A program made the position numbers and the translations under genes. Below, one piece after another: positions 2,379-37,226 of a stretch of DNA of 64,000 nt. A model generated the notes under the pieces. It saw nothing but the letters and a program-made list of their open reading frames with translations, was not told where the DNA came from and made no database searches. This stretch comes from a virus. Each line of letters begins with the position of its first letter. The stretch's first letter is position 1. The stretch spans positions 8,867-72,866 of IMG/VR virus record IMGVR_UViG_2209111000_000009; one strand, given 5' to 3'.

Positions 2379-2408
2379 TAAGACCCGCCAAGTATCTAGC
2401 GGGTCTTA
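2379..2408. terminator. hairpin between convergent operons
   Basis: TAAGACCCGC / GCGGGTCTTA 10-bp stem. Confidence 0.6.
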
Positions 2409-2411
2409 ATT

Positions 2412-2873
2412 TTAGATATTGATATTTCGTTGTAAACCAGTCTGTGAGGCTCTACGAGGCGAAACCCTTCCGCTTCGTTTAGCTCTTTTTACATTGGATT
2501 TACCGCTTATCGCCCTTTCATCAGCAGCGTTCTGATTTCTAATTTTTCTTTGTGCTGCTTTCTGTGCGCCTGATCTAGTAGTTGCATCACCGCCCTTGGG
2601 AGCTTGACCTAGTTTCCTAGCTCGTCTTGCTATTGACTTTTCTGTCGCCGCCACCTCAGAGCCACTTCTACGACCTGAATTGACCACCGCTCTTGTCCCC
2701 GCACTTTTTGCGGTATTAATAAGAGCTACCGAAGGTTTTTGACCTACCTGAGTACGGCTATTCATTCTCGTATTGACAGCCTGATCCACATTGCCAAACT
2801 TGTCTCTAAGTTGTTGGCCCCTAGAGGTGCCTCCACCCTTACCGCTGCCTGTACCGCCACTGCCTTTAGCCAT
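2412..2873 (-). CDS. basic protein with MAKGSGGTG tag (copy 4, 153 aa)
   Basis: Starts MAKGSGGTGSGKGGG; very K/R-rich; GGAGG RBS. Confidence 0.8.
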   Translation of the reverse strand: MAKGSGGTGSGKGGGTSRGQQLRDKFGNVDQAVNTRMNSRTQVGQKPSVALINTAKSAGTRAVVNSGRRSGSEVAATEKSIARRARKLGQAPKGGDATTRSGAQKAAQRKIRNQNAADERAISGKSNVKRAKRSGRVSPRRASQTGLQRNINI

Positions 2874-2894
2874 AAGTCCTCCTAAATTTACTAA

Positions 2895-3167
2895 TTACCG
2901 CAACCCCTTAACCTTTTTCTGTAAGTCAGAGCCGGGGGTGAGGGTTACTTGAGTCTCGCCTATTTGGATCTTGTTGGGCAAGAAACTCTCTTTCCACCTG
3001 CTAGCTTTTAACTCATCAGCTATAAGCCTAGCTTGTTTATCAATGTCCCCGGACTTCACAGCACTAGCAAAGTTGGCACTCCGCTGTTTTGTTTCCTCTG
3101 CACGGTTAGGTCTTTTTGTGCTTGCTCCGCCCTTTCCTTTGCCCGTCCCTCCGCTACCTTTTGCCAT
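2895..3167 (-). CDS. basic protein with MAKGSGGTG tag (copy 3, 90 aa)
   Basis: Starts MAKGSGGTGKGKGGA. Confidence 0.8.
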   Translation of the reverse strand: MAKGSGGTGKGKGGASTKRPNRAEETKQRSANFASAVKSGDIDKQARLIADELKASRWKESFLPNKIQIGETQVTLTPGSDLQKKVKGLR

Positions 3168-3173
3168 ATTGTT

Positions 3174-3473
3174 CTAAATGTCTGCAATTTTGCTTAATAT
3201 GCCATCACGCCGCTTATTTAAAGCCCTTTCCCGAGCGTTTACACTCCTCATTTGTCCTTGTAACCGCTTAACCCCCTCAGTGTCTCCACTAGATCGAGCT
3301 TGGTCAATTTTCGAGGTAAAAGCTTTTTGCTCCTTATTGACCTTCTGTAGCTGGTTGCTAGCCGTTTTATAAGCCCTCTGTCCGCGCTCTAAAGCGGGGG
3401 TACGGGTTTTAGTACGCTTACCATCTCCGCCACCGCTTTTTCCTGCACCCGTACCACCGCTGCCTTTAGCCAT
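3174..3473 (-). CDS. basic coiled-coil-like protein with MAKGSGGTG tag (copy 2, 99 aa)
   Basis: Starts MAKGSGGTGAGKSGG. Confidence 0.8.
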   Translation of the reverse strand: MAKGSGGTGAGKSGGGDGKRTKTRTPALERGQRAYKTASNQLQKVNKEQKAFTSKIDQARSSGDTEGVKRLQGQMRSVNARERALNKRRDGILSKIADI

Positions 3474-3479
3474 ATCTTA

Positions 3480-3947
3480 TTAATACCCTTTATAAGTGGT
3501 CTGACCTTTTCTATCAAAGCGAATCACACCACTTTTAGACCGTTTTGCTTTCCCAACTACTTCCCGTGCAGCTTTGTTACCTAAACGGTTAGGATTTGTT
3601 CTGGCTTTTTTAGCTCTGTTTGTTTGTGATCCTGGGGTGGAGTCTTTAACAGGCTTAGAGCCTATATTTACTTTAGGTTTTTTCGGGTTGAAGTAGTTAT
3701 CCATAAACTCCTGTCGCCCCTTTTTACCCATCTTTTTTCGTACCTTGTCATTATACCTAGTTACAGAGTTTAACCAAGTAGTAGCATTTTCCTCGGGTCT
3801 ACCTTTTTCCTCTAAATTTCTCCTACCTCTGTCACTCCGAATAGAGGAATCACCATATTTTGCACGGAGTTCAGCACCCCTTGATACGGTAGATTTACCC
3901 CCCGCCCCGCTTTTGCCCCTCCCTGTACCCCCACTGCCTTTAGCCAT
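3480..3947 (-). CDS. basic protein with MAKGSGGTG tag (copy 1, 155 aa)
   Basis: Internal Met at 3947 gives MAKGSGGTGRGKSGA; start overlaps the stop of the upstream gene. Confidence 0.8.
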   Translation of the reverse strand: MAKGSGGTGRGKSGAGGKSTVSRGAELRAKYGDSSIRSDRGRRNLEEKGRPEENATTWLNSVTRYNDKVRKKMGKKGRQEFMDNYFNPKKPKVNIGSKPVKDSTPGSQTNRAKKARTNPNRLGNKAAREVVGKAKRSKSGVIRFDRKGQTTYKGY

Positions 3948-4653
3948 AGATAACACCCCGCGAACGTTGGTCTTCACTTGCTAACCATTGCCAGCCGCGC
4001 TCTTTGCAAAGCGCCCAAATCTTGCGCTCACCCCCGTAAACCAGGAAGAAGATATTATCGGTTCCGGCGTGTTCAACAGCCAGTGCGTGTTCACGTTCCA
4101 AAGATTCAATCCGAGTCGGGTAGCCACGGGTAGCATATGATCGCCATCCTTTGGGGACACCCATTAGGCTCAAAGGGTAGAACTCAGTAGGCACGTTTAA
4201 ATCAACAATCACCTTGTAGCCGAGTTGTTGCCAGTACCGAGCAAGCCAGCGCTTCTTGTAGGTACTCCACACCACCCAAGACAGAGGACTGTCTAACGAC
4301 AAGGTATAGTTAGGCTCTACGAACGCAGAGCATTGGGTTTTAGTAACTTTGTTAGGGTTGACCCACAAGCTAGGATCAAAGCGCGTATCATCCACGTAGA
4401 AGTGCAAAATGCCTTCCATACGGCTTAGCGCAGTCTTACCGTAAGGTAGGCAAGGGATAATCAATTCCTCTTGCTGGTGCGTAAGCAGTAAGTCCGGAAT
4501 ACCGAGAATATTGGAGGAAGGGAAAACGATGTCACCAGATACCTTTTGCGGTGCCTTGGCTTCATCCTTAACGAGAGCGATGCTAGCCGCAGGGGTGCTA
4601 AAGCACTTTTCTAACTCACTTAAAATTTGTAGTCCTAAAGTTTGTGTTACCAA
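3940..4653 (-). CDS. DUF4417-like protein
   Basis: HFYVDDxRF, FVEPNYTL, WSTYKKRWLARYWQQLGYKVI, GVPKG and YGG match my recollection of the DUF4417 consensus. Confidence 0.75.
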   Translation of the reverse strand: MVTQTLGLQILSELEKCFSTPAASIALVKDEAKAPQKVSGDIVFPSSNILGIPDLLLTHQQEELIIPCLPYGKTALSRMEGILHFYVDDTRFDPSLWVNPNKVTKTQCSAFVEPNYTLSLDSPLSWVVWSTYKKRWLARYWQQLGYKVIVDLNVPTEFYPLSLMGVPKGWRSYATRGYPTRIESLEREHALAVEHAGTDNIFFLVYGGERKIWALCKERGWQWLASEDQRSRGVIYG

Positions 4654-4681: not shown

Positions 4682-4690
4682 AGTATACCC
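4682..4690 (-). promoter_or_regulatory. putative late promoter (GGGTATACT) for the DUF4417 operon
   Basis: Same GGGTAT box as at 21451, 27806, 44183 and 52003. Confidence 0.45.
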
Positions 4691-4732
4691 TGGGCGGGTA
4701 CTTTAGGTTAAGCACTCTCACAAAACCTCACA

Positions 4733-6754
4733 ATGGATACTATACAGCTAGGAAATATTGAAACTCTTTACCCCTTAGTATACGGTGATGACCCGGAGGG
4801 GTTTGTCATAACCAGACCCGAACTCTACGACCCTGATAATGGTCAGCGAGTTGAGGAAGTACCAGCTACCATGTACGAAACACGGTTTTTGGTTCCGGTT
4901 ATTGACTTTCCTGTTGTTAAAACATTAATTCAGACAGCGTTTAGGGTATTTGAGGAGACTAATGAAGTAACCCAAACGCTTGTTGTAGTAACTACTGACG
5001 AGAGTTCCCCCTCCGAGTCTGGTAACTACCTGGTTTTTTGGGTGTCTGAGGTTCATGAGAGACTAGGGGACAAGGTATTAGTTACTCTAAAAGGATACGG
5101 GGAGCCAGATAGTCAGACTATTGCCCCAGGGCAGACCTTTACAGTAACAGAAGGAGCGACAACAGGTACGATATTGGGTACGGTTAGGGGGGCTAAGCCG
5201 GGTTTAACTTTGCAAAGCCGCCCGGACATCCCTTTCGCCTATGATTCAGCAAGCGGTGTGCTGTCAGTAGCGGGCAAGCTAGACTTTGAGACTACAGACG
5301 AATGGACGCTAACAATTGGTGGGCAAGATGTAACTGTGTGGGTACTAGATACCCTTGAAGACCCCCTACCAGTACAGTCAACCTATACGTTTTACTTAGA
5401 ACCAGACACTAAACCCGGCACAGTGGTGGGTACGATCGAGGTTGAGAAACAAGGTGATACTGGTAAAGCCCCCGTTTACGCAATAGCTAGCGGTAATACA
5501 GGGGGTTGGGCGATCGACAGCACCAAAGGGGATATCACTTACTTAGGGAGTCAGCCCTTAGTTGACGGGCAGATTTTGGGGATAGTCTATGGGGGTACTG
5601 ACCCACTCACAGTGACTCTTAGGGTAATGCCTGCTAGTGAGATTGTGCTTCCCATAGTCCGTTTCAACCTACCCGCTACCCTTTCCGATGGTATGCTAGT
5701 AGGTTTGGTTGGGGCTGAGGGGGTGCAAGCTTCTATAACAGACCCTGCTTATAGTATTACTGATAACAAGCTGTATGTAGCTGACAAGAGGCAAGCAGTA
5801 CCAGGTCTTACCGAGCTTACGCTAGACCTTAAAGGGCAAGGTAGGCAAGGCACCCAGCAAGTTTACGTTACCGTAGCTGAAACACCTACAATAAATGAAT
5901 TTTGGTTGGCAGAGGATACCGAGAATGGTGGAGGAGTTGGGCAAGTTGAGCTACCAAGCACAGGTGCTTATGCTCTAACACCTACTACTGTGTTTGGTAT
6001 TAATTCAGGTACGGGTGAAATACTGGTCACTAACTCTAGCGCCCTTAGAGTTGGTAACTACTTACTGACCATCACAAAGGGTACTGAGTCCATCACAGCA
6101 ACGGTCAAGGTCTATGCAGTCATTACCTCTAACACGCTAGAACTGACAGCCCCTCCCGCCACGCTGATTGGGACAACCTTGGGTACTGTGCAAGGGTTAG
6201 CACCTTTCACTACCACGGCGATCGCGCCTTACAGCCTAAACAGCACGACGGGGGCGATAACCCTCGCAGCTACCCCTCCAGCCGCTTTAAGCTTCACGGT
6301 AACGGATGCAGCGGGTGATACAACCCAAGTGACTATAAGCCTTGAGGAAGCGCCAGACACGGGTGATGCAGGCTTTATCGGAGCAGTGTACCCCGGTTTT
6401 AATGGTCAGGCAGTAGCTACCCGTGCGGGTGTAGTGTTCTCCGTAGGCTCGATAGGATTCGGTCAAGGGAGCTTAAACACTGATCCGGATAACCTCGGTA
6501 GCGTAGCTCGCAATACCGAGGGGGTGGTAGTGGCGTCCAAAATGCCAGGTCTTCAGCACGGCGTTAGCGGGCGGGCTACAAAGGAGATGTACCTTGCCCT
6601 TAAAGCGCTTTGGCTCCTACCGTTAGAAACCCCCATCACTGTCTCTACGGCAGCAACGGGGGAGGATTATATATGCACTTTAGTAAACTTCAAACGAGTA
6701 ATAGACCCTGAAGGCATCAGCGTTAGCTTAGAGCTGAGGTCTATGGGGCTTTAA
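4733..6754 (+). CDS. virion/tail-associated protein with cadherin-like beta-sandwich repeats
   Basis: TFTVTEGATTGTILGTV, LDFET and YTFYLEPDTKPGTVVGTI repeats; T/G/V-rich. Confidence 0.6.
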   Translation: MDTIQLGNIETLYPLVYGDDPEGFVITRPELYDPDNGQRVEEVPATMYETRFLVPVIDFPVVKTLIQTAFRVFEETNEVTQTLVVVTTDESSPSESGNYLVFWVSEVHERLGDKVLVTLKGYGEPDSQTIAPGQTFTVTEGATTGTILGTVRGAKPGLTLQSRPDIPFAYDSASGVLSVAGKLDFETTDEWTLTIGGQDVTVWVLDTLEDPLPVQSTYTFYLEPDTKPGTVVGTIEVEKQGDTGKAPVYAIASGNTGGWAIDSTKGDITYLGSQPLVDGQILGIVYGGTDPLTVTLRVMPASEIVLPIVRFNLPATLSDGMLVGLVGAEGVQASITDPAYSITDNKLYVADKRQAVPGLTELTLDLKGQGRQGTQQVYVTVAETPTINEFWLAEDTENGGGVGQVELPSTGAYALTPTTVFGINSGTGEILVTNSSALRVGNYLLTITKGTESITATVKVYAVITSNTLELTAPPATLIGTTLGTVQGLAPFTTTAIAPYSLNSTTGAITLAATPPAALSFTVTDAAGDTTQVTISLEEAPDTGDAGFIGAVYPGFNGQAVATRAGVVFSVGSIGFGQGSLNTDPDNLGSVARNTEGVVVASKMPGLQHGVSGRATKEMYLALKALWLLPLETPITVSTAATGEDYICTLVNFKRVIDPEGISVSLELRSMGL

Positions 6755-8416: not shown

Positions 8417-11400
8417 CTACCTGCAAGTATCACACTCTTTCTTGCGGTTGTTAATAAGATTCTTAACCGTCACTTGTGGTTTAGGCCCTCCGCCTGCCAC
8501 ATTGACGGTTACTTGATTTTTAACTGTTGTATCTTGCCCGCCGCCCTTGCTGACCTCGATCGCCTTAACCGCTTTAGTCACTGCATCTAGTTTACCTGCT
8601 AACGGTGCTACCGACTTGCCAACCCCTTTAAGCTGGTTGGTTTGCTCAGTGCTAGCCCTCTGAATAGCGCGAAGTGGGGCAACAGTGCGATCGTCCTTAA
8701 CCTTCACCTCAATATTACTAGGGGTCAGCTTGAGGGTGGGTAGTGATACCGTCGCCACTTTCTTAATCTCTTCCCGAATATCTTTGATTTTATTGGAGAA
8801 AGCATCAACAGATTTAGTGTCGATACGAGGGCTTAACCCTTTTAGTGACCGCTCGTAGTTCTGTTGGCTGTTTAAAAGTTTTTGCTGGGTGTCTAACGTC
8901 TCCTCTTGTGACTTTGACTGTAATTCGCTTATTTTGGCTTGACTGTCTAACAGTTTATTGCGAAGTTCTGCCTCTTGTTCGGAGGACTGGCGCTGAGCTT
9001 CGCCTAGTTCCTTGGTGCGGTCTACTTGGTTTCGCAGGTTAGCTGCTTGAGCAGCTAAGGCTTTAGCCTCGTCTTTATCCTTAGTTAGTCCTGCTTGTGC
9101 CTCTAATTGGTCAGCCTGAATTGCCAGCTTTTGAGCTTCTAACTCTAATTCTTGTGCTTTAAAGTCGGCTCTAATCTTATCCATCTCTATCGCCGCTCGC
9201 TGGTTAGCTAGCTCTAACGCACCCATCTCTATGCTGAGTGCTAACTGCTCTCGCTTGACCTTAATCTGGTTCTGTTCCGCTTGTTGCCGTTGGTTTATTA
9301 ATTGCTCTTCGGTCTTACCCCCTTCCTTTCCTAGGGCGGCAAGCTGTGATCGCAGCGCTAAAGCTTCACGCTCCATCGCTGTCCGCTGTTCCGCTGTCAG
9401 CTTGGTGTCGGTAGCTAACTGTTTTTCGATGTCTGACAATTTGGTACGGGCGGCTAGGGCGGCATTGACCAGCGACAGTTCATTACTTAACCCTGTTTCT
9501 AAACTTTGCAGTTGCGCAGACACCAGCCCCGACTGAGCTTGCCGTAATTGTGAAGTACGAGCTACCGACTGAGCCTCTAGTTCACTGAGTGCCACAATTT
9601 GGGCTAGGTTTTGCTTTTGGTTCTCAAACGACAAGTTGCGTAACTCACTAGCCTTTTGAAGAGCTGCTAGTTGCTCGTTACCTTTCTCTGACATCTGGGT
9701 GTCCAAGTCTAGTAACTGGGCCTTAAGCTTTAGCTGGTCTTGCTGGTTTTTCTGCTTATCTGATTCATCTCCTTTACCTTCCAGACCCCTTAGTAGTTCA
9801 AGCTCAGCCTCGATTCTTGCACGGGCGAACCCTAGCTTTTTCTTCTCGGCTTGCTCCTTGGTGATAGTGCCTTCATTAACTTGCTGAGCCAGAGCTAGCT
9901 CGTCCTCTAAGATATTTATCTCCCCCTCACCCTTGCGCAGGTCAAGGCGCTTCTTAAGTAGGTCTAGCTCGTTTTTAATGGCACTCTGTAAGGCTTTCTC
10001 GGCTGCTATCTCAGCATCTATTAGCCCAATCGCTAGTTTCCTTAAATCCTTCTTTTTGGCTGCTACTCCTTGGGTATCACCAACCCTAGCTAGTTTCTCA
10101 AGCGCTCTCTCTTCCTCCGCCATCTGTGCCTTAATACGCTCAATCGCTAGATTAGCTATCTCAGTCTGGGCTTTAGCCTCACTATCGACGTTACGTCGTA
10201 TCTGTGCCTCTTGCTCAGCGTATGACAGGTCGAGCTGTTGCTTGCGCTCATCTAAAGCGGCTTTAACAATGTTTTGTAAGGATTTTTCTGCCGCTATTTC
10301 AGCGTCAATCAAACCTATCGCTAGCTTGCGGACTTCAAGGCGCTTTTGTTCGGCACCTTTGGTGTCCCCCAATGAAGCTAGCTGGTTGGCGGCTTCCTCC
10401 TCGGCTTGCATCTGCGCCCGGATGCGATCGATGTTGATTTTAGCTATATCGGATTGCGCCTGAGCTTCATTATCGACACTCTGCCGGACTTTAGCGGCTT
10501 GCTCAGAGAATCCTAAGTCAGCAGCTTGCAACTTCTGAGCCAGTTGCTCCTTATATGCACTAATAATCTTGTCACGGGCTTGTAATTCAAGGTCTAGCAG
10601 TGACTCAGTGGCTTTCTTAGAACGTTCCTTGGCGGCAGTAATCTTGTCTTCAAGCTCTTTACGCTCGTCACCTTTAGCGGAACCCAGTAGGGCTTGCAGT
10701 TTAGAGACATTTTCAGCCTCAGCAGCTTGTTCGGCTTGTATTCTGGTGCGACGGTTAGCTAGTACCTCTGCATCATACTGTTCTTGAGTTTTGGTACGGT
10801 CAAGCAACCCTTGCTTAAGGGCGATCGTTGCTTCCGTTTCCGCCGCCCCCGCTTCCCCCATTGATTTCTGATATCCTTCCTCGATCGCTTTTAAGCGGGC
10901 GGCGGTAGCATCTTTCTGACCTTTAATATCTACATCGGCAAGCTGCTGTGATATAGCTATTTGCTTTTTCTTAGCTTCGGTCAGAGCTTCGGTAGCTGCT
11001 TGATTTCCGCCTTGACTTGCTGCTAGGGCGGCTAACTTTGTTACTTGCTCATTAGTAGCCTTAAGCTCTATGGACAGTCGGGTTTTGGTCGCGTTGCTTA
11101 CTTTCTGGTCATACTCTTGCTGAGATATTTGGCGATCTGCTAGCTGTTTCTTAAGAGTTAAGGTAGTTTGAGATTCTGCTAACTCTGCCACACCCTTAGA
11201 CTTATCAAAGCTATCCTTGACCGCCTTTAAACGCTCCTCTGCCGCCGCTTTAACTGCTGCGCCCTCGGTTTTAGTGGCATTGAGAGTTAATTCGGCTGAC
11301 TTCTGCTTTGAGTCGGCTATTTTCTTTTCAATTTCTTCGCGTTGGTCAGCCGTTGCAGCTCCCTTAAGCAGGTCTTGCAGTTTAGCTTGGTTATCTTCCT

Positions 11401-13648
11401 CAGCCTCTATCTCAGCCCCTAGGCGCTCCTTGGTAGCTTCCAAGGTCTGTGTGTTGTACTGCCCCTCCGTGACCTTTTTAGAGGCTAAGCCCTTCTCAAG
11501 AGCCAATAATCGCTGGGTTTCCGAAGCTTTAGCAGCGCTAAGAGTTTTTTGGTAAGCGTCCTCTTGATCTTTCTCTCTTATTTCTGCTATTTTCTCTAAG
11601 CTGTCCAACTCGGTATCTGCTTGTTTAGAAACCAGTTGCTCACGTTCTAGGGCTAGTTTTTCGGTAGACTGCCCTAATTCTTTAGCCTTTTCAATTTGAC
11701 TATCAAGGCTTGCCACCTGCACATCGGTTTGCTTCTTAGAGATATCTAAGCCAGCCTTAGCCCCCTCGATCGCGCTCATCGTGCCTTGCTTGACCTTGCG
11801 CTCAACTGCCGCAGCTTCCAGGTCTAACTGAGCCACCTTAAAATCAGTAAAGTCCTTTTCAAGACCTTTCATTGCCTCCAAGGCTGATTCTCTAGTTTCT
11901 AACTCTAACTTGGTATTTTTTACGACAGTATCAAGTCTACCTATACCCTGAGCAGCAGTAATCTGTCCGTACTCTACTTGCTTAGCAGTTAGTTCGGTTA
12001 CAGACTTGGCGGCCTCTTCAAATACCTCCTTTTTACCTCCGCCGTCACGGTTCAAGGTGGCTAAAGCACTCTCAGCATTTTTGCCTAGAACCTCCATCAT
12101 CGTACCGAGTTTTTGAAGTTCTGGAGCTTTAAAAGTTAAGTCGTCCTGAGCTGTTTTTAACCCCTCTAAGGTCTTGATAGACTTCTCAATAGCTGTTATC
12201 TGGGCTTCTACTGCTACATTGTCAGCCTCTCTAAAAGTTTTCATCCCTTTTAAGGACTCTTTTTGCTTTTCCAGGGCGTCAATTTGACCCCTTACCATTG
12301 CAGAACTAGCTTTGCCCGAACTGGCTATCTTCTCAGCTTGGGCGGTCAGAGTGGCAGTTACATCACGGTAAGTTTCTACAGCCTCAATTGAATCTTGATA
12401 TTCCCCTGTAAGTTTAGCTACATTGGCTTGTGCATCATTAAAGACTTTACCAAGATCAAACCCTCCCCCTAAGCTCGCTGTTGCTTGTGTAAAATTACCC
12501 AAAGCATCAGTGGCCACAGTTAGCAAGTTGGCAAGTTTACCTATGCCCTCTAAGCCAAAGCTTAGAGTGGTGAAAGTATTACCCAAAGCCGTACTTAAAA
12601 TAGGCCCAAATATACCAGCAATACTGACACCTAGCTTAATAAGTCCTTCGGCGGCGGTAATGAGATTACCTATCAACTCAGAACCCCCCGTTAAGAAACC
12701 CTCGGGGGTGATATTGAAAGCATCTCCTATATCTTTAACTGACTGTGTGAGGGTATTAAACAAGCTAAGCAGGTCTGCTACATTTTCCTTGGTTAGTTCC
12801 TCGATTAGGTCACGGTTCTTAAGCAAGGTCTGGTAAACCTCGTTTAAAGAGGATGTAACCGGGGCTAACAGGGGTTCGCCTGCCATCCGAGCAGTATCTT
12901 CAAACAAACTTTGGATGTTAGACGCGACCGCTCCGATCGACACCGATGCAAGCTTATTACCCTCTACGTACACTGCCAGTTTTTTGTTTATCTCGTCTAT
13001 TAGTACCCCGTTAGACACCCACTGGTCATACTGCTCGCGTGAGATAGCTAAGGTCTTGGCAATTACTGAGTCTGGGTTATTAACATCCCCCTGTAAAATA
13101 CTTCTTATTTCCTGGTTAGCTTGTTCAAGAGGTAGCCCGAGTGTACCCAGTGCGGCCGCCCACCCTTTTGTAGCGTTGGTGGCGGCGTCTATGGGATTAG
13201 AGAACTCTTTAGACTGCCCGATAAAAGAGCTAGCGTTCTGTAACAATATTTGAAAGACACCATTAACTTGCTGGGTTGTAACCCCGGCTAGTTCGGTTGT
13301 GTCCTTTTCGATCTGCTTAAGCGAATCTTTAAGGGTTCCGGCGCTAGATATAATCTTGTCGCCGATATTGTCAATTTTAGTACCGTTTTGATAAATATCT
13401 AAGGTGCTAGCAAGAGCTACTTGAGACTTTAACAACTCCGCATTTAGCTGCTCGTTACTATCAATAAGTGATCCGTAGAGCGCGCCTGCTATCCCTTGTA
13501 AACCCCCTAACGCGGCAGTAAACAACTCTAGCTGGGAGTTCAGTTCGGTGAACCCCCCGATCGCATTGTTTTGCAAGTCATCAATCTGCCCTTGTGTTTG
13601 GGGCAGATTTTGTGTGGTGAATTCTACGACGATACGCTCATCTGGCAT
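8417..13648 (-). CDS. tape measure protein
   Basis: 1743 aa, A/E/K/Q/L-rich and helical, with a G/L-rich hydrophobic stretch around aa 320-400 and internal repeats. Confidence 0.8.
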   Translation of the reverse strand: MPDERIVVEFTTQNLPQTQGQIDDLQNNAIGGFTELNSQLELFTAALGGLQGIAGALYGSLIDSNEQLNAELLKSQVALASTLDIYQNGTKIDNIGDKIISSAGTLKDSLKQIEKDTTELAGVTTQQVNGVFQILLQNASSFIGQSKEFSNPIDAATNATKGWAAALGTLGLPLEQANQEIRSILQGDVNNPDSVIAKTLAISREQYDQWVSNGVLIDEINKKLAVYVEGNKLASVSIGAVASNIQSLFEDTARMAGEPLLAPVTSSLNEVYQTLLKNRDLIEELTKENVADLLSLFNTLTQSVKDIGDAFNITPEGFLTGGSELIGNLITAAEGLIKLGVSIAGIFGPILSTALGNTFTTLSFGLEGIGKLANLLTVATDALGNFTQATASLGGGFDLGKVFNDAQANVAKLTGEYQDSIEAVETYRDVTATLTAQAEKIASSGKASSAMVRGQIDALEKQKESLKGMKTFREADNVAVEAQITAIEKSIKTLEGLKTAQDDLTFKAPELQKLGTMMEVLGKNAESALATLNRDGGGKKEVFEEAAKSVTELTAKQVEYGQITAAQGIGRLDTVVKNTKLELETRESALEAMKGLEKDFTDFKVAQLDLEAAAVERKVKQGTMSAIEGAKAGLDISKKQTDVQVASLDSQIEKAKELGQSTEKLALEREQLVSKQADTELDSLEKIAEIREKDQEDAYQKTLSAAKASETQRLLALEKGLASKKVTEGQYNTQTLEATKERLGAEIEAEEDNQAKLQDLLKGAATADQREEIEKKIADSKQKSAELTLNATKTEGAAVKAAAEERLKAVKDSFDKSKGVAELAESQTTLTLKKQLADRQISQQEYDQKVSNATKTRLSIELKATNEQVTKLAALAASQGGNQAATEALTEAKKKQIAISQQLADVDIKGQKDATAARLKAIEEGYQKSMGEAGAAETEATIALKQGLLDRTKTQEQYDAEVLANRRTRIQAEQAAEAENVSKLQALLGSAKGDERKELEDKITAAKERSKKATESLLDLELQARDKIISAYKEQLAQKLQAADLGFSEQAAKVRQSVDNEAQAQSDIAKINIDRIRAQMQAEEEAANQLASLGDTKGAEQKRLEVRKLAIGLIDAEIAAEKSLQNIVKAALDERKQQLDLSYAEQEAQIRRNVDSEAKAQTEIANLAIERIKAQMAEEERALEKLARVGDTQGVAAKKKDLRKLAIGLIDAEIAAEKALQSAIKNELDLLKKRLDLRKGEGEINILEDELALAQQVNEGTITKEQAEKKKLGFARARIEAELELLRGLEGKGDESDKQKNQQDQLKLKAQLLDLDTQMSEKGNEQLAALQKASELRNLSFENQKQNLAQIVALSELEAQSVARTSQLRQAQSGLVSAQLQSLETGLSNELSLVNAALAARTKLSDIEKQLATDTKLTAEQRTAMEREALALRSQLAALGKEGGKTEEQLINQRQQAEQNQIKVKREQLALSIEMGALELANQRAAIEMDKIRADFKAQELELEAQKLAIQADQLEAQAGLTKDKDEAKALAAQAANLRNQVDRTKELGEAQRQSSEQEAELRNKLLDSQAKISELQSKSQEETLDTQQKLLNSQQNYERSLKGLSPRIDTKSVDAFSNKIKDIREEIKKVATVSLPTLKLTPSNIEVKVKDDRTVAPLRAIQRASTEQTNQLKGVGKSVAPLAGKLDAVTKAVKAIEVSKGGGQDTTVKNQVTVNVAGGGPKPQVTVKNLINNRKKECDTCR
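9935..10510 (-). repeat. 96-aa (288-nt) tandem duplication inside the tape measure gene
   Basis: KLAIGLIDAEIAAEK occurs twice, exactly 288 nt apart (10033 and 10321). Confidence 0.85.
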
Positions 13649-14301
13649 CCGAACCCCTCATATATCTCGCCTACATTTTGTAGTAGCTCTGATATAGAGT
13701 ACCCGCAGCGGTCTAAAGCGCCTAACCACTCTGGGCCTTTTAACTCTGTCAGGGGTTCAGGGTGGTTAGGGGGGATGTTGTCGCTTTTATCACCCATCAC
13801 CCGCTTAAGGTTGCCAACATAGCTAGGGTGAGGTATCCACATCTTGTGTATGCGAAAGGCCCACTCTATTACCTCTTGGTTGCGCCGTAGCCCCGGAGTG
13901 TGTCTGCCAAAGTTCTCCCACTCTATGCCGTTCTGATCATCTACGAGTTGGAGCCAGTCCGTATCCACTGTTAACAGCCTAAGTGTACCCGGCACCTTAT
14001 TAATGGTCTTGTAGTAACAAAGCAGCCCGGCCCAATCATCTGCCTCTAAACCCTCTTTGCAAAGGGTAGGCAGTCCCAAGGTAGTGCCGCTCTCAATGAG
14101 TTCGCGCTCAAGCGGAGCGCTAGTCCTTCCCGCCTTGTACTCAGGGTATAGCAAGGTACGCCAGTAGGGTTTAGAGTCTACTAGCAAGACTATGTGAGGG
14201 TCGCGAGTGAGGATGCTTTGCCAAAGTTTAGTGATACCCTCAGGGGTTTCTTCAAGGGCGCGTATGTTGTGTAGGAGGCAGAAAAGATCGATCGCAAGCA
14301 T
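13624..14301 (-). CDS. 5'-3' exonuclease / flap endonuclease
   Basis: YPEYKAGR, GLEADD, TVDTDWLQL, GDKSDNIP. Confidence 0.9.
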   Translation of the reverse strand: MLAIDLFCLLHNIRALEETPEGITKLWQSILTRDPHIVLLVDSKPYWRTLLYPEYKAGRTSAPLERELIESGTTLGLPTLCKEGLEADDWAGLLCYYKTINKVPGTLRLLTVDTDWLQLVDDQNGIEWENFGRHTPGLRRNQEVIEWAFRIHKMWIPHPSYVGNLKRVMGDKSDNIPPNHPEPLTELKGPEWLGALDRCGYSISELLQNVGEIYEGFGCQMSVSS

Positions 14302-17042: not shown

Positions 17043-17300
17043 ATGCCAAAAACCAACTTAAAACGTTTAGAGGCACATCAAAAGCACTTAGACAAGCTTT
17101 CAAGCTTGTATATAGATGCTAATGAGTTTACTTACATCTTTTTGAATCAACAGAGCGGTGAACACGAGCTTTACTTGCAAGGCTTGACTCACGCAACCTG
17201 TATCGGTTGGGGTACTTTAGAACGTTGCCAAAGGTTGGCGAATAAAGTCAAAACCAATCCTACGCCATACCGCCGCTATTTCAAGGTAGGTTTACCATGA
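17043..17300 (+). CDS. hypothetical protein (85 aa)
   Basis: Follows a promoter-like element; ATGA overlap with the next gene. Confidence 0.6.
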   Translation: MPKTNLKRLEAHQKHLDKLSSLYIDANEFTYIFLNQQSGEHELYLQGLTHATCIGWGTLERCQRLANKVKTNPTPYRRYFKVGLP

Positions 17301-18214
17301 AGCTAGTATCATTGTTTAGCGGGGCAGGTGGCTTAGACCATGGGTTTGAGACAATCTGGGCTAACGAGTATGACCGGGTTACTGCGGGTGTCTGGGAGCG
17401 CAATTTTGAGAACGGCGCTAAGATTATGAACTGCCTACCCATTGATAAGGTGCGGGAGTTCCCAAAAGCGGATGGCGTAGTTGGTGGGCCACCTTGCCAA
17501 AGTTTCTCAATCGGCGGCGCTAAACGTGGCGTAGATGACCCACGCAGTAAGCTGTTCTACAGTTACGTCAACGCGATCAAGGTAATCCTCCCAAAGTTCT
17601 TTCTGGCTGAAAATGTCTCAGGACTCTTTAGCCCTCGGAACCGAGACACTTATGATGATATCTTGCGACGCTTTCGTGAACTAGGCTACCTTTGTGATGG
17701 TCAGGTACTAGACGCGGTTGACTATGGTGTGCCTCAGAACCGAAAGCGGTTGTTTATCTTGGGCTACCGTTCAGACTTGGGTATCTCCCCAACTTTTTCG
17801 ACCCCCTTAGAGTATAAACTCAATTTGCTCCATGCTTTGACTGACGTGCCGTACCTCCCCGTACTTAGTGGTAGAGGAAAGGACAGCTACAGCTCACAAT
17901 ATATGACCTGTAACCGGGTGCGAAAGTGGCTAGAGCCTAGCTACACCATAGTGGCTACCCGTCGCTCTAACCCTAAGCACCCTGACGTTACAATGATTAA
18001 AGACGTGGGGATAGAGCAATGGGTGTTTGGGGCATCCGGTTCTAAGAGGCTAAGCGCGATCGAGTGCGCCCGGATTCAGACTTTTTCAGATACTTTTAAC
18101 TGAGAGGGGGTATCACTTGACGCGGTTTACCGTATGATAGGCAACGCTGTACCTGTTAACCTTGCCCGCGCGTTAGCCGAGCATATCTTGGAAAAGTTGC
18201 AAAAGGTTCGGTAA
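17297..18214 (+). pseudogene. C5-cytosine methyltransferase (M.HaeIII-like) interrupted by an in-frame TGA
   Basis: SLFSGAGG, GGPPCQSFS, AENV, PQNRKR; after the TGA at 18101-18103 the frame continues EGVSLDAVYRMIGNAVPVNLA (motif X) to TAA at 18214. Confidence 0.85.
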
Positions 18215-19732: not shown

Positions 19733-20197
19733 GTGAAAAAACTACTACTTACAATCGTCCAAGTCAAAGCACTTCCGACCTCCACCGAATACGACACCGC
19801 CGAACTACAACCCTTAGCTGAATCTAGCCTCGCTCTCGGAGGGTTCATCTACCCACCAGTAGTACGCCGAAGCGCCGAAGGATATGAGATCATCAGCGGA
19901 CACCGTGAAGTCGCTGCTGCCCACCTCGCTCGCATCATTGACCCACGAGGTGGTGAAAATATCCCAGTCATGCTAATCGAAGAAGAAATGGAGGAAACCG
20001 CAGCCGTCCAACTAGAGGCACCCACCGCGCCCGCTAAGGCACCCCAAATCATCTCAACCCCTGAGCCGACCGAAGCTACTCCACTGCCCGAAATTAAGCG
20101 TTACTGCCAAGAGCGGGGCATTACCCCAGACGGTAACAAACGTTACAAATCTACATGGCTGGCAGCCGTCCGGGGTATGGCTATCACTACTAAGTGA
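19733..20197 (+). CDS. ParB/Srx-like N-terminal domain plus C-terminal HeH-like motif
   Basis: PPVVRRSAEGYEIISGHREVAAA..DPRGGE; C-terminal LPEIKRYCQERGITPDGNKRYKSTW. Confidence 0.7.
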   Translation: MKKLLLTIVQVKALPTSTEYDTAELQPLAESSLALGGFIYPPVVRRSAEGYEIISGHREVAAAHLARIIDPRGGENIPVMLIEEEMEETAAVQLEAPTAPAKAPQIISTPEPTEATPLPEIKRYCQERGITPDGNKRYKSTWLAAVRGMAITTK

Positions 20198-21450: not shown

Positions 21451-21465
21451 GGGTATATTAGGGTA
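21451..21465 (+). promoter_or_regulatory. putative late promoter GGGTATATTAGGGTA
   Basis: Identical 15-mer at 27806; sits at the head of the tail operon. Confidence 0.6.
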
Positions 21466-21839
21466 TGGAAGACTCACTAGAGGACTTAATTCGCGAACAG
21501 TGCCGCCCGTTAGCCATCAACCCCCGCATAGAGGTCGAATGGAACGGTAGCTCTTTCACGCGCTCAAACACGTCTAACCTTGAGGCAAAGATACTAGGCA
21601 TCTACAACGTGAGTTTTACACTGTTGTGCAAAACCCGTGATCGTAGGTCGGTGTTTAAGCTAGGACTAAAGGTGCGCGACGCTGTTAACGGGTTACGTCC
21701 TGAGTCGGTTAGCCCTCTAATACCTGCCTTATGCTGCACTAATATGTCTTATACGGGCATAGATGGTGATGAGTTGCACGGGGTCAGTATTACGGTTAAC
21801 ACTCAATTCCCTTATATAAAGGAGCAAACTAAATGTTAA
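21465..21839 (+). CDS. putative tail terminator / tail completion protein
   Basis: Size (124 aa) and position directly before the tail tube gene; position-based call. Confidence 0.45.
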   Translation: MEDSLEDLIREQCRPLAINPRIEVEWNGSSFTRSNTSNLEAKILGIYNVSFTLLCKTRDRRSVFKLGLKVRDAVNGLRPESVSPLIPALCCTNMSYTGIDGDELHGVSITVNTQFPYIKEQTKC

Positions 21840-22576
21840 GTGGAGTGGGCAACTTATGCCTGTTATCTCTTGACTACGGCGATGATAACTTCGCCTTTCC
21901 TCAAGCTTTCGTGGATTTCAACATTAACTCGGATGTTAGTTCCAAAGAAGCCCGAGGCTGGGTTAACGGCAAAAAGCAGGTGCTAGCCTCAGCGATCGAC
22001 AGTGAGAGCTATACCCTTACGTTGGCGATGGAATTCGTCAACTGGCAAATTCTTGCTTGGGCTTTTGACCAACGTCCCCAAAAAGTTACCAATGCGGTAT
22101 TGCCCTATACCAAGTCGGCTATTGCCAATAATAGTGGCGTAGTGACTGACCCGCAGATTAAAGCAGGTACTAAGTTATTTGCCTATGTAGCGGCTAAGGG
22201 GCCTTGGGGGAATGCTCGCCCGTTAAAGAAAACTGAGGTTACTGTATCAGCAGGATCATTTAGTGTTGGTGCTGGTTTTGCTGCGGCTCCTATCACCTAT
22301 CACTTTACTGACACGGTGGCAGAGATTGACTCGATCGGCGCGGTAACAGGCGCTCAAAAGTTTGGCAAGCTAGGGTTTTCCGGTTTGGGCTACGGGCCAG
22401 AGTTCCCTAACGGCATTCTGATTGTAGTACCTGAAATTACTCGTAAGAGTTCGCCGAGCTTTGAGACGGGCGATGTCCCGAAGTTCAGTGTGGAATACGG
22501 GATTAACATTCCGCAAGGCTCTGATTCGCCTTTCCGTTTCTATGACATGAGCAGTATACCACCAGCGGCGGCATAA
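21833..22576 (+). CDS. major tail (tube) protein
   Basis: 247 aa, beta-rich composition, SESYTLTLAME-type segment; position. Confidence 0.6.
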   Translation: MLSGVGNLCLLSLDYGDDNFAFPQAFVDFNINSDVSSKEARGWVNGKKQVLASAIDSESYTLTLAMEFVNWQILAWAFDQRPQKVTNAVLPYTKSAIANNSGVVTDPQIKAGTKLFAYVAAKGPWGNARPLKKTEVTVSAGSFSVGAGFAAAPITYHFTDTVAEIDSIGAVTGAQKFGKLGFSGLGYGPEFPNGILIVVPEITRKSSPSFETGDVPKFSVEYGINIPQGSDSPFRFYDMSSIPPAAA

Positions 22577-22577
22577 T

Positions 22578-23399
22578 ATGGATTATCTGGGACAGTCGGG
22601 GGAAAAAGCGTTAGTTAATGACCGGGGGCGGATACTCCGGTTGCCTTTTGCTGGCGACGGTCAGCCCCCGGAACCCGGAACCCGGATTAACCCTAAGCGA
22701 GATAGCTGCTGTTGTCCTAAAAGTGTAGATTTGATGTCTAAGCAAGAAGACCATAAAAGATCTGACCCTCGCAGAACTTCGGATAAAAATAAAAACGGTA
22801 ATTTAGTCTTTATGGGGATAGATAGCCCTGTTGACCGAGATCTTTGGGTTTCTGAGTTTAAGGGGCATAAAATAAAGCTTCTACTATACCCTCTTGACAC
22901 TATCATTACCCCTCTCCCTACTTATTGGCTCTACTTTGATATCGACAAAAATAAAGTCAATATTGTAGATGTAATGACAAAAGCTACAACCATTTACTTG
23001 TATAGCCGTCGCACTTTTGGGAGTTTAGGTAATCACGACAATAATCTTAATGAAAAAAATGAATTAAAAAGTATAATAAGAAAGTTTTATCAGCCTCAGG
23101 AATATGACCAAATACTTGATAAATTAACTAGATCTCACCCTAGACCTAGAAGTATAAGAATACATTTTAAAGTATTTGATATATGGGACAATTTGATTGC
23201 TGTTGAGCATGATATTAATAAAGAAAAAAAATGGGTAAAGAAATTTAAAGAAATACACCCAAATACTAGGTTATCAAAATATAACCATTATGTAAAAAGT
23301 ATTAACGGAAAAGGAGATGGAAATGGTGTTTTAGAGCCGCTTAAAGATTGGTACAAAAAGCCTGAAGATAAGAGATATAAATATGTCCGCATATATTAA
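22578..23399 (+). CDS. hypothetical protein with AT-rich, K/N-rich C-terminal part
   Basis: Open 273-aa frame with an abrupt compositional shift after about 22780. Confidence 0.55.
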   Translation: MDYLGQSGEKALVNDRGRILRLPFAGDGQPPEPGTRINPKRDSCCCPKSVDLMSKQEDHKRSDPRRTSDKNKNGNLVFMGIDSPVDRDLWVSEFKGHKIKLLLYPLDTIITPLPTYWLYFDIDKNKVNIVDVMTKATTIYLYSRRTFGSLGNHDNNLNEKNELKSIIRKFYQPQEYDQILDKLTRSHPRPRSIRIHFKVFDIWDNLIAVEHDINKEKKWVKKFKEIHPNTRLSKYNHYVKSINGKGDGNGVLEPLKDWYKKPEDKRYKYVRIY

Positions 23400-23916
23400 C
23401 ATCCCCCTCACTAACGGGCGTTGGCTAACTTTGCAGCGCTTACCCGTATTTGCACGGCTTGATTTCTCCTACCACATTAAAGCCGCCTATGAACTTCTAG
23501 CAAAGGATAAACAACAAGACATCAGGGAGTTTTATGTCCGTAATAGTGAGTTTAGGCACCATTGCAATATAGCTCTCGAATTACATCACATACCCCCAGA
23601 CCATATATCAGATGACCAATTTATAGCTTTGCTGTTTGGATCTCCTAAATTTCCCTTTGGAGTCCTTAACCAGTTTAATTTCGATATCACCGAAGCTACC
23701 AAAAACGCTAAGGCACCAGGGAAGGAGACTAAGGGGTCATTGCTGGGGAAACTCTTTAAAGCTACTGGAGACGTATCGGTAGCCCTTAAAATGGCTCAAG
23801 AGCTACCTGTTGATGTTCTAGAGGACTTGTTCGCTGAGATGAAGCCTCAAGATACCAAGGACAAAGAGAAAGCCAGACGAGCTTTATTACAGTATCAAGC
23901 GCATGGAGAAGGCTAA
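23383..23916 (+). CDS. putative tail assembly chaperone
   Basis: Helical 177-aa protein after the tail tube gene; position-based call. Confidence 0.4.
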   Translation: MSAYINIPLTNGRWLTLQRLPVFARLDFSYHIKAAYELLAKDKQQDIREFYVRNSEFRHHCNIALELHHIPPDHISDDQFIALLFGSPKFPFGVLNQFNFDITEATKNAKAPGKETKGSLLGKLFKATGDVSVALKMAQELPVDVLEDLFAEMKPQDTKDKEKARRALLQYQAHGEG

Positions 23917-26435: not shown

Positions 26436-26773
26436 CTTTTACCTTCAGCGTAATTTTGCAACCACTCCCTTAGTACCTCTGCCCTTGGTTGACCTATGAA
26501 CTTGTTACCTGTGCGCCTTTGTACTTCCGCAGCGTAAGGGCAGTCTACTACCGTGGTGTTTTGTACCGCCTTGATAGACTTTAAGAGGTTTCCTGACTCA
26601 AATAGCGGCTTACCCCCCCGCTTGTCCGGAGGCATAGCGCTGCCATCTATATTGGTGGCTGTGCGGATATTATTACGAGCGTGTTCCGCCATGCTACGTG
26701 CTAGGTAGCTTAAGAACTGGGGCTTCTGGTACTTCTTCAGGAGTTGTACCTGTGTTGTCGGTTTGCTTGTCAT
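26432..26773 (-). CDS. Mu gpG-like virion morphogenesis / tail completion protein (start uncertain)
   Basis: IDGSAMPP...PLFESGNLLKSI...PYAAEVQ pattern. Confidence 0.65.
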   Translation of the reverse strand: MTSKPTTQVQLLKKYQKPQFLSYLARSMAEHARNNIRTATNIDGSAMPPDKRGGKPLFESGNLLKSIKAVQNTTVVDCPYAAEVQRRTGNKFIGQPRAEVLREWLQNYAEGKS

Positions 26774-28968: not shown

Positions 28969-29298
28969 ATGAACACCAATCCGGCTCACGTCATTATCCA
29001 AGCTACAACCGTCCGCGCCAAAGCGAACTTGAAAGCCGCCACACTCGTAAGGTACGCCAGTATCCCGGGCGGTACTACTCCCGTGCTAGGTGTTGTCCTT
29101 TTTGATTGCAAAGAGGGTGATTTAGCTTCGGTGGGTGTCAAAGGTCAATATCAAGTGCAAGTAGCACCCGGTGTTACCTTGGCACCGGGCGATCCTATGG
29201 CTCTCAACGCCCAAGGTCAAGGCATTGCTGGCACCCCGGAGACAAAGGTAGCAACTGTTTTTGAGTTCGTACCGACACTAGCAACCATTATTTTATAA
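28969..29298 (+). CDS. capsid decoration/cement protein (DUF2190-like)
   Basis: VLGVVLFDCKEGD..SVGVKG...GDPMALNAQGQGI; lies between the protease and capsid genes. Confidence 0.65.
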   Translation: MNTNPAHVIIQATTVRAKANLKAATLVRYASIPGGTTPVLGVVLFDCKEGDLASVGVKGQYQVQVAPGVTLAPGDPMALNAQGQGIAGTPETKVATVFEFVPTLATIIL

Positions 29299-37155: not shown

Positions 37156-37221
37156 CGCCGTAGGAGGGGGTTGAACCCTCATCTCCCGCCATAGCGGGCA
37201 GTTTGCTTAACATACTACGAT
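37156..37221 (-). tRNA. degenerate tRNA-like gene, isotype undetermined
   Basis: T-arm GAGGG-TTCAACC-CCCTC; 6/7 acceptor pairs; short D arm; anticodon arm CCCG-CTATGG-CGGG has a 6-nt loop. Confidence 0.5.
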
Positions 37222-37226
37222 ACCAA

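Follow-up and report, generated by a model that had tools for sequence, protein, structure and literature searches.

The window, by which we mean the whole 64,000-nucleotide stretch analysed here, probably derives from a cyanophage. Near one end it carries four adjacent minus-strand open reading frames (2412-3947), each with the start MAKGSGGTG[RAKS]GK[SG]G (Table 1). A gene of the DUF4417 family lies directly upstream on the same strand, and its TAA stop (3942-3940) falls inside codons 2-3 of tagged gene 4. The gaps between the tagged genes measure only 6-21 nt, leaving no space for interleaved reading frames. The array and the DUF4417 gene constitute the variable and the constant half of one two-part module, with a cadherin-like protein and methylases as further neighbours. 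The module is located about 18 kb from the Mu-like head genes of the phage (portal, 26694-27764) and is thus not beside its packaging or head genes.

Table 1 The tagged gene array and flanking features in the window.
Feature	Position	Strand	Properties
Inverted repeat aagacccgc ... gcgggtctt	2380..2407	.	Between array end and convergent plus-strand gene 2084-2374; read from sequence
Tagged gene 1 (P0001)	2412..2873	-	153 aa, pI 12.0; N-terminus MAKGSGGTGSGKGG; AGGAGG ribosome-binding site
Tagged gene 2 (P0002)	2895..3167	-	90 aa, pI 10.3; N-terminus MAKGSGGTGKGKGG
Tagged gene 3 (P0003)	3174..3473	-	99 aa, pI 11.0; N-terminus MAKGSGGTGAGKSG
Tagged gene 4 (P0004)	3480..3947	-	155 aa, pI 11.0; N-terminus MAKGSGGTGRGKSG; translational coupling to DUF4417
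DUF4417 (PF14386) gene	3940..4653	-	237 aa, TTG start; Pfam E=5.7e-25; constant partner of tagged genes
Candidate sigma-70-like promoter	4682..4711	-	Weak match TTAACC-18-TATACT; upstream of DUF4417, divergent intergenic region

The inverted repeat behind the array is possibly a two-way terminator, judging from its sequence; a consensus terminator scan did not flag it. The promoter candidate matches at 9 of 12 positions, and such matches are no more numerous than in shuffled sequence. Synthesis of a polyprotein by stop-codon read-through was considered, as all four genes share one frame (about 1 in 27 by chance), but was rejected because the shared frame is missing in relatives.

A conserved N-terminal peptide on unrelated bodies

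The first-pass annotation described four adjacent genes that share an N-terminal tag, and the array is confirmed by the DNA itself. A degenerate DNA pattern for MAKGSGGT has four matches in the window and none in each of 100 shuffles, and no further match elsewhere in the 76,986-bp genome. Over codons 1-9, all 28 codon differences in the six pairwise comparisons of the tagged genes are synonymous (0 non-synonymous), while the 30 nt upstream of the starts are identical at only 7-12 positions between copies. Selection therefore acts on the peptide and not on the DNA, and the claim that the array is no recent DNA duplication holds. Leu, Ile and Glu are absent from residues 1-16 of each of the four proteins.

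Past residue 16, local alignment against 300 shuffles detects no significant similarity between the bodies (z ≤ 1.3 in all six pairs). Homology along the full length is thus not detected, in agreement with what had been claimed, but the bodies are not unrelated throughout. A short stretch behind the tag, SRGxELRxK(F/Y)G, is common to gene 4, gene 1 and a related protein, P0005, indicating that some cargoes are mosaic relatives at their N-terminal ends. A word-index homology search with P0004 returned P0005 as the sole relative, via the tag. Neither Pfam nor PHROGs returned a significant match for any of the four proteins, so that no effector, toxin or MuF domain is recognisable, and a search of the ESM Atlas yielded no relatives of these cargoes (Atlas models have a pLDDT of about 0.5). 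All four proteins are very basic (pI 10.3-12), with low-complexity bodies and poorly modelled structures. They are probably disordered and may well bind nucleic acid. The resemblance to histone H4/H2A tails noted earlier finds no support past composition.

The same peptide recurs in other phages. In IMG/VR, 24 of the 32 occurrences of AKGSGGT[RS] directly follow an ATG, i.e. the tag is a free N-terminus, and the remaining eight look like chance matches. One internal AKGSGGTR, in the 1,062-aa protein L282, was evaluated as a 'Rosetta stone' fusion; the protein has no family matches and an amidase-like downstream part, and the occurrence was judged a chance match. The tag takes the form MAKGSGGTG-x-GK-x-G in the window, M[AGS]K-x-SGGTR in gut phages, and MGGRG... 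or MGKRGG... in actinophages and streptococcal phages; the widespread SGGTR form lacks a GK[ST] motif. K3 is near-invariant. Position 9 is Arg in 30 of 42 cargo groups, a position at which Arg, Gly or Lys was built into the search pattern. An exact longer DNA pattern and a tag-alignment locus search yielded no confirmed relatives, and tblastn cannot confirm a nine-residue match.

Linkage of the tag to DUF4417 in other phages

The neighbourhood comparison that had been suggested, made here in IMG/VR, shows DUF4417 next to the tag in most cases. Among 27 public viral contigs with tagged genes, about 25 contain DUF4417, and the two that do not are fragments estimated to be 7% and 36% complete. 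On IMG/VR contigs found via the tag alone, DUF4417 is adjacent in most, and in three of the five others it is located elsewhere on the contig. Starting from DUF4417, 50 of 84 dereplicated loci have a core tag -60 to +1500 nt downstream, and 65 have one anywhere on the same strand; no core-tag gene is present in the retrieved DNA of the other 19. As a background, 27 of 9,040 ATG-initiated reading frames match the tag pattern. All 27 are further tagged genes on the DUF4417 strand, with 0 on the opposite strand. Among the 50 loci with a downstream core tag, 18 have the tag start no more than 10 nt from the DUF4417 stop; in 14 of these 18 the tag begins upstream of the stop and the genes overlap, as they do in the window.

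Four close relatives of the window DUF4417 (59-97% identity) all have one or two tagged genes directly downstream. Their cargo is partly orthologous to that of the window and partly new: gene 1 has orthologues in relatives L165 and L166, and gene 2 has one in L167 with the tag MAKSRGGTGRSS. Orthologous cargo keeps its identity across these relatives while the content of the array turns over rapidly. Distant named phages also have DUF4417 followed by a tagged gene. These are Mic1 (MVKTSGGDGR), the mycobacteriophages D29, SweetiePie, Rumpelstiltskin and Bromden, and Streptococcus phage Javan115, the last five with glycine-rich variants of the tag. One tagged gene (L076) was found in a bacterial metagenome-assembled genome in which no DUF4417 was detected. 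A DUF4417 search of 401 Bacillota genomes returned 0 matches above the cut-off and hence supplied no independent replicate from prophages.

In the AlphaFold2 model, the window DUF4417 protein adopts a TIM-barrel-like fold (pLDDT 89). The model and the conservation place the invariant residues D89 and E113 and the near-invariant D151 at strand ends, on what would be the C-terminal face of the barrel. The conserved pattern consists of DD, ExN and DxN at strand ends and a YGGG loop, and the protein looks more like an enzyme than a passive adaptor. Phosphate-binding barrels head its fold matches: ribulose-phosphate epimerase (Z 9.0), DpdA (8.0) and tRNA-guanine transglycosylase (7.8). The last two score in the same range as many unrelated barrels (Z 7.5-9.0). 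Searches of the PDB retrieved generic TIM barrels only, so that no specific chemistry can be named, and AFDB clusters retrieved only DUF4417 proteins or ParB fusions.

Clustered at 50% identity, the family numbers about 2,460 representatives, and fusions to a ParB/Srx domain are frequent. Of the best 150 hits of a representative search, all except about nine have the DUF4417 domain at the C-terminal end or close to it. Many of these hits have an N-terminal extension of about 150-200 aa, which is ParB in the seven inspected. A natural fusion of DUF4417 to the tag (P0175) was folded and gave a pLDDT of 39-54 over the tag stretch; the only source of this protein is one 1-kb contig, and it could be an artefact of assembly. 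[quoted passage not shown] In the papers searched we found no description of the tag-DUF4417 pairing, and for these papers the earlier statement that no system with this layout had been described holds.

Cargo and genomic position of the module

The constant tag on variable cargo, first noticed in the window, extends far beyond it. The tagged proteins counted number 107 and fall into 42 cargo groups. A few have known domains: ADP-ribosyltransferase, GIY-YIG nuclease or LPD3. In SweetiePie, for example, a Gly-rich start is followed by an ADP-ribosyltransferase. In PHROGs, homologues of these ADP-ribosyltransferase domains make up the C-termini of minor-head or virion proteins, and such domains have been argued to be packaged in the head (PMC9503650, PMC5512222).

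Unlike in the window, the module is located beside packaging or head genes in L167, L005, and gut and streptococcal phages. It abuts the head genes in L167; the tagged gene of L005 lies ahead of homologues of window genes 21465-25293. Gut phages have their tagged genes either just upstream of terS, terL and an SPP1-type portal or on the far side of the portal, before a large downstream gene. Other neighbours of the module include DNA methylases, ParB-methylase fusions and ArdA. In the literature searched we found no virion proteomics for any phage that bears the module, and nothing decisive for the actinophages among them.

Possible roles of the tag and of DUF4417

We propose, tentatively, that DUF4417 reads a label on interchangeable clients that are most likely carried in the virion. 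The four window genes would be clients of a two-part module with DUF4417 as its constant part, and the short, glycine-rich, basic N-terminal label would be the handle by which they are recognised. The clients would be accessory or effector proteins, swapped quickly between related phages. They would most likely be made late, travel in the particle and act upon DNA entry into the next cell, as functional analogues of the T4 internal proteins and Alt, the P1 Dar proteins and MuF-fused toxins. The parts of this proposal differ in strength. That DUF4417 binds or acts on the tag is rather likely, given their genetic linkage. Loading of the clients into the virion and their delivery may also take place, and we hold this with less confidence. 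The cargo types and the position beside head or packaging genes in relatives make a capsid-targeting or ejection role of the tag plausible. Among the options raised by the first-pass annotation, an enzyme-recognition leader gains most, since the tag is genetically tied to an enzyme-like protein, DUF4417, which that annotation left unmentioned; the recognition itself is what we infer.

T4 offers a likeness that had been put forward. The capsid-targeting sequence of its internal proteins IPI, IPII and IPIII and of Alt is a short N-terminal peptide on otherwise unrelated proteins, and the prohead protease removes this signal at an L/I-x-E site. The proteins of the T4 set are often small, basic, tandem-encoded and hypervariable between related phages, and they include an ADP-ribosyltransferase. 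The tagged proteins are alike in all these respects. However, the analogy fails at the level of sequence. There is no similarity between the signals, the tags cannot carry an L/I-x-E site since they lack Leu, Ile and Glu, and this phage has Mu-like head genes. No dedicated partner comparable to DUF4417 is known to go with the T4 signal either, and the tagged proteins here are known from the genes of an uncultured phage.

Swappable C-terminal effectors behind a constant N-terminal part are also known from the MuF polymorphic toxins of temperate phages (Jamet et al. 2017, PMC5576092) and from polyvalent virion proteins (Iyer et al. 2017, PMC5512222). As in other members of the module, these effectors are ADP-ribosyltransferases, nucleases and LPD domains, and the genes are located beside packaging or head genes. 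In those proteins the effectors are joined in one polypeptide to a folded scaffold (MuF, portal or polyvalent), whereas the constant part here is a peptide of 9-14 residues and a separate DUF4417 protein. MuF toxins further consist of a C-terminal toxin domain followed by a small immunity gene. The window array has neither a toxin domain nor an immunity-like gene. PF04233 (MuF) has no match anywhere in the phage genome, and toxin-type cargo does occur in other members of the module. RiPP precursors also combine a constant N-terminal recognition peptide with variable C-terminal parts, encoded in tandem beside one enzyme-like gene. In the module, however, the 'cores' have 40-230 residues (76-141 in the window), some with enzyme domains, and the leader only 9-14; no known RiPP maturase family is present beside the window array.

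A less likely explanation is an enzyme-substrate system without virion delivery. The catalytic DUF4417 barrel would covalently modify, process or activate the tag with ParB/Srx as a nucleotide- or DNA-binding helper, and the clients would act in the producing cell, e.g. on phage or host DNA prior to packaging. The enzyme-like conservation, the phosphate-binding barrels among the best fold matches and the translational coupling of DUF4417 to a tagged gene agree with this, as do the neighbouring methylases, ParB-methylase fusions and ArdA and the basic, DNA-binding look of the window clients. The fold matches are nevertheless generic for TIM barrels, and late synthesis of toxin-type cargo would be hard to explain without export in particles.

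It is doubtful that the tag acts without DUF4417, either read by a host or head component or serving itself as a flexible arm that binds nucleic acid or phosphate, with the adjacency reduced to conserved synteny. Common descent of a syntenic block could indeed account for part of the linkage. In P0004 and P0003 the tag reads GGTG-x-GKS, similar to a Walker A loop (GxxxxGK[ST]), and it may further resemble the tail at the N-terminus of ribosomal protein bL27. Similar tags occur in phages of four bacterial phyla despite different head gene sets, and the tagged gene in the metagenome-assembled genome has no DUF4417 match. Against this, DUF4417 is the sole gene that travels with the tag across unrelated phage backgrounds, and the widespread SGGTR form does not preserve the Walker-like residues. 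Less probable still are ordinary tandem paralogues with low-complexity bodies drifted past recognition and an N-terminus kept for expression (start-region codons, translational coupling): the tandem order in one reading frame and the extra motif SRGxELRxKFG in some copies would fit, but the synonymous pattern, the unrelated upstream regions, the same tag on folded, unrelated domains elsewhere (ADP-ribosyltransferase, GIY-YIG), the loss of the shared frame in relatives and the orthologous cargo that stays distinct as array content changes speak against them.

Should DUF4417 indeed read the label as an address, a small and portable system that marks arbitrary proteins for common handling would be shared by phages from four or more bacterial phyla. 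ADP-ribosyltransferase toxins and nucleases would be among the marked proteins, and the handling would probably be virion delivery. This would give a role to the DUF4417 family and to the variable small genes beside it, account for the fast-changing gene arrays that adjoin packaging genes, and require correction of gene starts and names in model-phage records. A tag of 9-14 residues could then be used to load foreign proteins into phage particles.

A bolder version, which we regard as improbable, is that DUF4417 is a new protein-handling enzyme that covalently modifies or ligates the free glycine-rich N-terminus of its clients, e.g. to a nucleotide, DNA or a head component. The TIM-barrel active site would act, and ParB/Srx would serve as a nucleotide or DNA clamp. 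Arbitrary effectors would then travel with the phage genome by a pan-phage addressing chemistry, unlike MuF fusions or T4-type signals, and model phages (D29, for one) as well as streptococcal ones (e.g. Javan115) would possess this chemistry. As the module is also found in culturable phages such as D29, SweetiePie and Mic1, the reading of the label as an address is directly testable.

Four basic proteins behind one N-terminal label

All four head-to-tail ORFs of the array (P0004 to P0001 in order of transcription) start with MAKGSGGTG-x-GK-x-G. A degenerate DNA pattern for MAKGSGGT matches the window four times vs none in each of 100 shuffles, and no further match lies outside the array in the whole 76,986-bp genome. 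In six pairwise comparisons of the four genes, tag codons 1–9 show 28 synonymous and 0 non-synonymous differences, while the 30 nt 5' of each start are unrelated (7–12 of 30 identical between copies). The tag peptide is thus under selection, and a recent DNA duplication is ruled out as the origin of the array, in agreement with the peptide-level conservation proposed in the first-pass annotation.

The common start and tandem order could suggest ordinary paralogues, a reading that we consider unlikely. From residue 17 onwards, similarity among the four does not exceed that of shuffled sequences (z ≤ 1.3 in 6/6 pairs). Their pI is 10.3–12.0 and their net charge +10 to +28, so the initial description, four tandem basic proteins sharing only the tag, holds. 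Hydrophobic residues are scarce (14–19%), P0004 and P0001 are modelled in the ESM Atlas at a pLDDT of only ~0.5, and Pfam and PHROG scans gave no match for any of the four. As these clients are basic and disordered, nucleic-acid binding is a natural guess. The TAA stop of the DUF4417 gene falls within codons 2–3 of P0004, and a weak promoter-like site lies upstream of the DUF4417 gene.

Features of the window around the tagged array and elsewhere
Feature	Position	Strand	Description
P0004	3947..3480	-	155 aa ORF, tagged
P0003	3473..3174	-	99 aa ORF, tagged
P0002	3167..2895	-	90 aa ORF, tagged
P0001	2873..2412	-	153 aa ORF, tagged
DUF4417 gene	4653..3940	-	PF14386, E=5.7e-25; directly upstream of array, same strand
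Inverted repeat	2380-2407		between array end and convergent gene
DNA methyltransferases (three)	3-932, 1254-1817, 17297-18103	+	
Cadherin-like gene	4733-6754	+	673 aa, weak repeats; divergent from DUF4417 operon
Giant ORF	8417-13648	-	1,743 aa, no Pfam match
Exonuclease-like gene	13624-14301	-	5'-3' exonuclease-like
ParB_N protein	19733-20197	+	stand-alone
Portal	26694-27764		Mu-type head gene
Protease/scaffold	27841-28965		Mu-type head gene
Cement protein	28969-29298		Mu-type head gene
Major capsid protein	29302-30279		Mu-type head gene
tRNA-like genes (two)	37156-37298	-	Rfam tRNA, 30.4 and 33.2 bits

Linkage of the label to DUF4417

DNA encoding MAKGSGGT is found at 33 IMG/VR loci. Nearly all matches are ORF starts, usually reading MAKGSGGTR, with very different bodies behind them and two or three tagged genes on several contigs. 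In 596 Gb of bacterial genomes most hits were due to chance, and the few genuine ones came from MAGs of gut Bacteroidales and Oscillospiraceae. When the initial Met was no longer required, 24 of 32 occurrences of AKGSGGT[RS] in IMG/VR stood directly after the ATG of an ORF and the other 8 looked like chance, so the label sits at a free N-terminus.

When the tag-derived loci were searched iteratively with the DUF4417 protein of the window, a homologue was identified beside the tagged gene in at least 22, and elsewhere on the contig in three of five further tag contigs. The remaining two lack DUF4417; both are fragments (estimated 7% and 36% complete). An autonomous or host-read function of the tag is unlikely. 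Approached from the other side, IMG/VR loci were fetched by the DUF4417 motif GxxHFYxDDxRF, with no use of the tag, and dereplicated to 84. The core tag was defined as M[AGS][KR], an optional residue, then [SGAKR][SGN][GSN][GTVIS][RKG]. A gene with this start begins within -60 to +1500 nt downstream of DUF4417 in 50/84 loci and is present anywhere on the DUF4417 strand in 65/84. Several of the other 19 have divergent glycine-rich starts (MGGRG..., MAPRKTRK..RRGGQAG) or short flanking DNA. Among 9,040 background ATG-ORFs the pattern occurs 27 times; all 27 are additional tagged genes a few kb off on the DUF4417 strand, and none is on the opposite strand. In 18 of the 50 loci the tag starts at the DUF4417 stop or ≤10 nt from it, and in 14 of these 18 upstream of the stop, so that the genes overlap. 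Only 436 of 50,697 phage genomes on deposit gave a tblastn hit to DUF4417, so chance co-occurrence is not a serious explanation. The linkage is tight and reciprocal, in phages of Cyanobacteria, Bacteroidota, Bacillota and Actinomycetota.

Close relatives show how the array changes. In four metagenomic contigs with DUF4417 proteins 97, 72, 67 and 59% identical to the window's (L165 to L168), tagged genes follow directly downstream in all four. L165 carries a P0001 orthologue and a new 100-aa cargo, L166 only a P0001 orthologue (tag MAKSSGGTGRSGSGNK), L167 a P0002 orthologue (tag MAKSRGGTGRSS) and a new 55-aa cargo, and L168 a single tagged gene starting MSKGGGGSGKGG. Tag and DUF4417 thus persist as the number and identity of the tagged genes vary, demonstrating rapid client exchange. 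Head genes adjoin the module in L167, and in another contig, L005, the tagged gene P0005 is closely followed by homologues of window genes 21465-25293. In L168 (7084-10261) at least three ArdA-like (anti-restriction) paralogues come after the DUF4417-tag pair.

The pair is also present in named phages. In Microcystis phage Mic1, DUF4417 is gp79 and, two genes on, gp77 starts MVKTSGGDGR. DUF4417 is ORF02 of mycobacteriophage D29, and the overlapping ORF03 opens with ~45 glycine-rich residues. In Mycobacterium phage SweetiePie, gp2 is DUF4417, annotated 'nuclease', and the frame of gp3 ('ADP-ribosyltransferase exoenzyme toxin') stays open 5' of the annotated start, from MGKRGGSGGGGG across ~80 glycine-rich residues. 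Rumpelstiltskin gp103/gp104 (MGGRGGGGTGGGKGGGKGG) and Bromden gp125/gp126 (VGGRGGGGGG) form similar pairs. In Streptococcus phage Javan115, the gene after DUF4417 overlaps it, encodes 136 aa from MGGRGASSG on, and precedes terS and terL. The GGTG-x-GKGGG part of the window tag resembles the Rumpelstiltskin form, which ties the MAKGSGGT and MGGRG variants together.

Two deposited records probably contain annotation errors. The SweetiePie gene 3 start at 1676 (L270, 1331-2269) omits ~110 in-frame upstream codons, including MGKRGGSGG and the glycine-rich stretch. Javan115_0028 (L273, 2456-3513), a DUF4417 protein, is named 'DNA modification methylase', and Javan115_0029 probably starts at locus position 3103, not 3235. 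On a single 1-kb contig (L283), P0175 joins DUF4417 in frame to MGSGRGGGGRG and a short body, and is either a natural fusion of the module's two parts or an assembly or frameshift artefact.

DUF4417 as candidate reader of the label

DUF4417 has 2,460 representatives at 50% identity (E ≤ 1e-3). Among the best 150, the domain is C-terminal or nearly so with ~9 exceptions, and many have an N-terminal extension of ~150–200 residues, with a ParB domain in 7/7 inspected. The ParB-DUF4417 fusion was noted in a 2025 preprint, with no function assigned (bioRxiv 10.1101/2025.10.10.680097). The AF2 model of the window protein (pLDDT 89, pTM 0.86) is a beta/alpha barrel. Its structural matches, ribulose-phosphate epimerase (Z 9.0), DpdA (8.0) and tRNA-guanine transglycosylase (7.8), are generic TIM barrels of which none stands out, and a search of AFDB clusters returned DUF4417 and ParB fusions only. 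Invariant or near-invariant residues (D89 of HFYxDDxRF, E113, N115, K134, R135, R139, D151, Y206-G207-G208) lie at the ends of strands or within the long helix. On this predicted fold the conservation pattern is enzyme-like, and the acidic residues would suit a pocket for a basic, flexible peptide.

The fetched loci encode 107 distinct tagged proteins, whose bodies fall into 42 groups by BLAST; the cargo behind the conserved peptide is unrelated. Most has no family; the domains recognised in the rest are ADP-ribosyltransferase, GIY-YIG nuclease and LPD3. In L010, the ADP-ribosyltransferase cargo aligns with the C-termini of PHROG families whose annotations are minor head, virion structural, Alt-like or RNA-polymerase ADP-ribosylase. 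Comparative studies have argued for head packaging and injection of phage ADP-ribosyltransferases and LPD domains when these are encoded next to packaging genes or are joined to MuF or portal (PMC9503650, PMC5512222, PMC5576092). In gut phages, tagged genes lie just 5' of terS, terL (Terminase_3) and an SPP1-type portal, and genes nearby encode ParB_N, ParB-methylase and DUF1064; two contigs have a tagged gene between the portal and a large downstream gene.

We consider DUF4417 the probable reader, which would recognise the glycine-rich label on its clients, because no other gene goes with the label through unrelated phage backgrounds and differing head gene sets. More tentatively, the clients may be accessory proteins made late and carried in the virion, a reading suggested by the kinds of cargo, by the proximity to packaging genes and by analogy with the internal proteins and Alt of T4, P1 Dar and MuF toxins. 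The main rival has DUF4417 as an enzyme modifying or processing the tag for a role within the producing cell. The enzyme-like residues would fit it, and it is compatible with the reader and virion model; we regard it as less likely than that model.

Polymorphic toxins, MuF toxins and T4 capsid-targeting signals follow the same logic, in which an invariant N-terminal address is combined with an exchangeable effector and a partner of its own, but those of their defining features that were tested are not found here. No paper containing the tag sequence was found in the searchable literature; four papers there mention DUF4417, and those consulted use it only as a domain or gene-product name. New from the window are the MAKGSGGT(G/R) form of the label, the array of four basic, disordered clients in a probable cyanophage, client turnover between close relatives, the test of the tag's N-terminal position and the predicted DUF4417 fold.

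The phage genome

The window covers bases 8867-72866 of a 76,986-bp viral record that is complete by CheckV. The opening bases of the record recur as its final ~47 bases, apart from a single mismatch at the extreme end, so it is probably a circular or permuted complete assembly, labelled 'linear' in IMG/VR. Among named phages, cyanophages are the closest: the capsid protein shares 39% identity with its counterpart in S-TIM5-type phages, and DUF4417 shares 40.6% with Mic1 gp79. A cyanobacterial host is likely. No MuF (PF04233) was detected in the whole 77-kb genome, despite the Mu-type portal and capsid genes. Two of the methyltransferases are C5-cytosine enzymes and one is weakly Dam/Eco57I-like N6; three in one phage fits heavy anti-restriction investment. 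The cadherin-like gene also adjoins DUF4417 in L165. Of the two adjacent tRNA-like genes ARAGORN called only one, tRNA-??? with the four-base anticodon 'caag', which may be an unusual or degenerate phage tRNA whose anticodon loop is enlarged.
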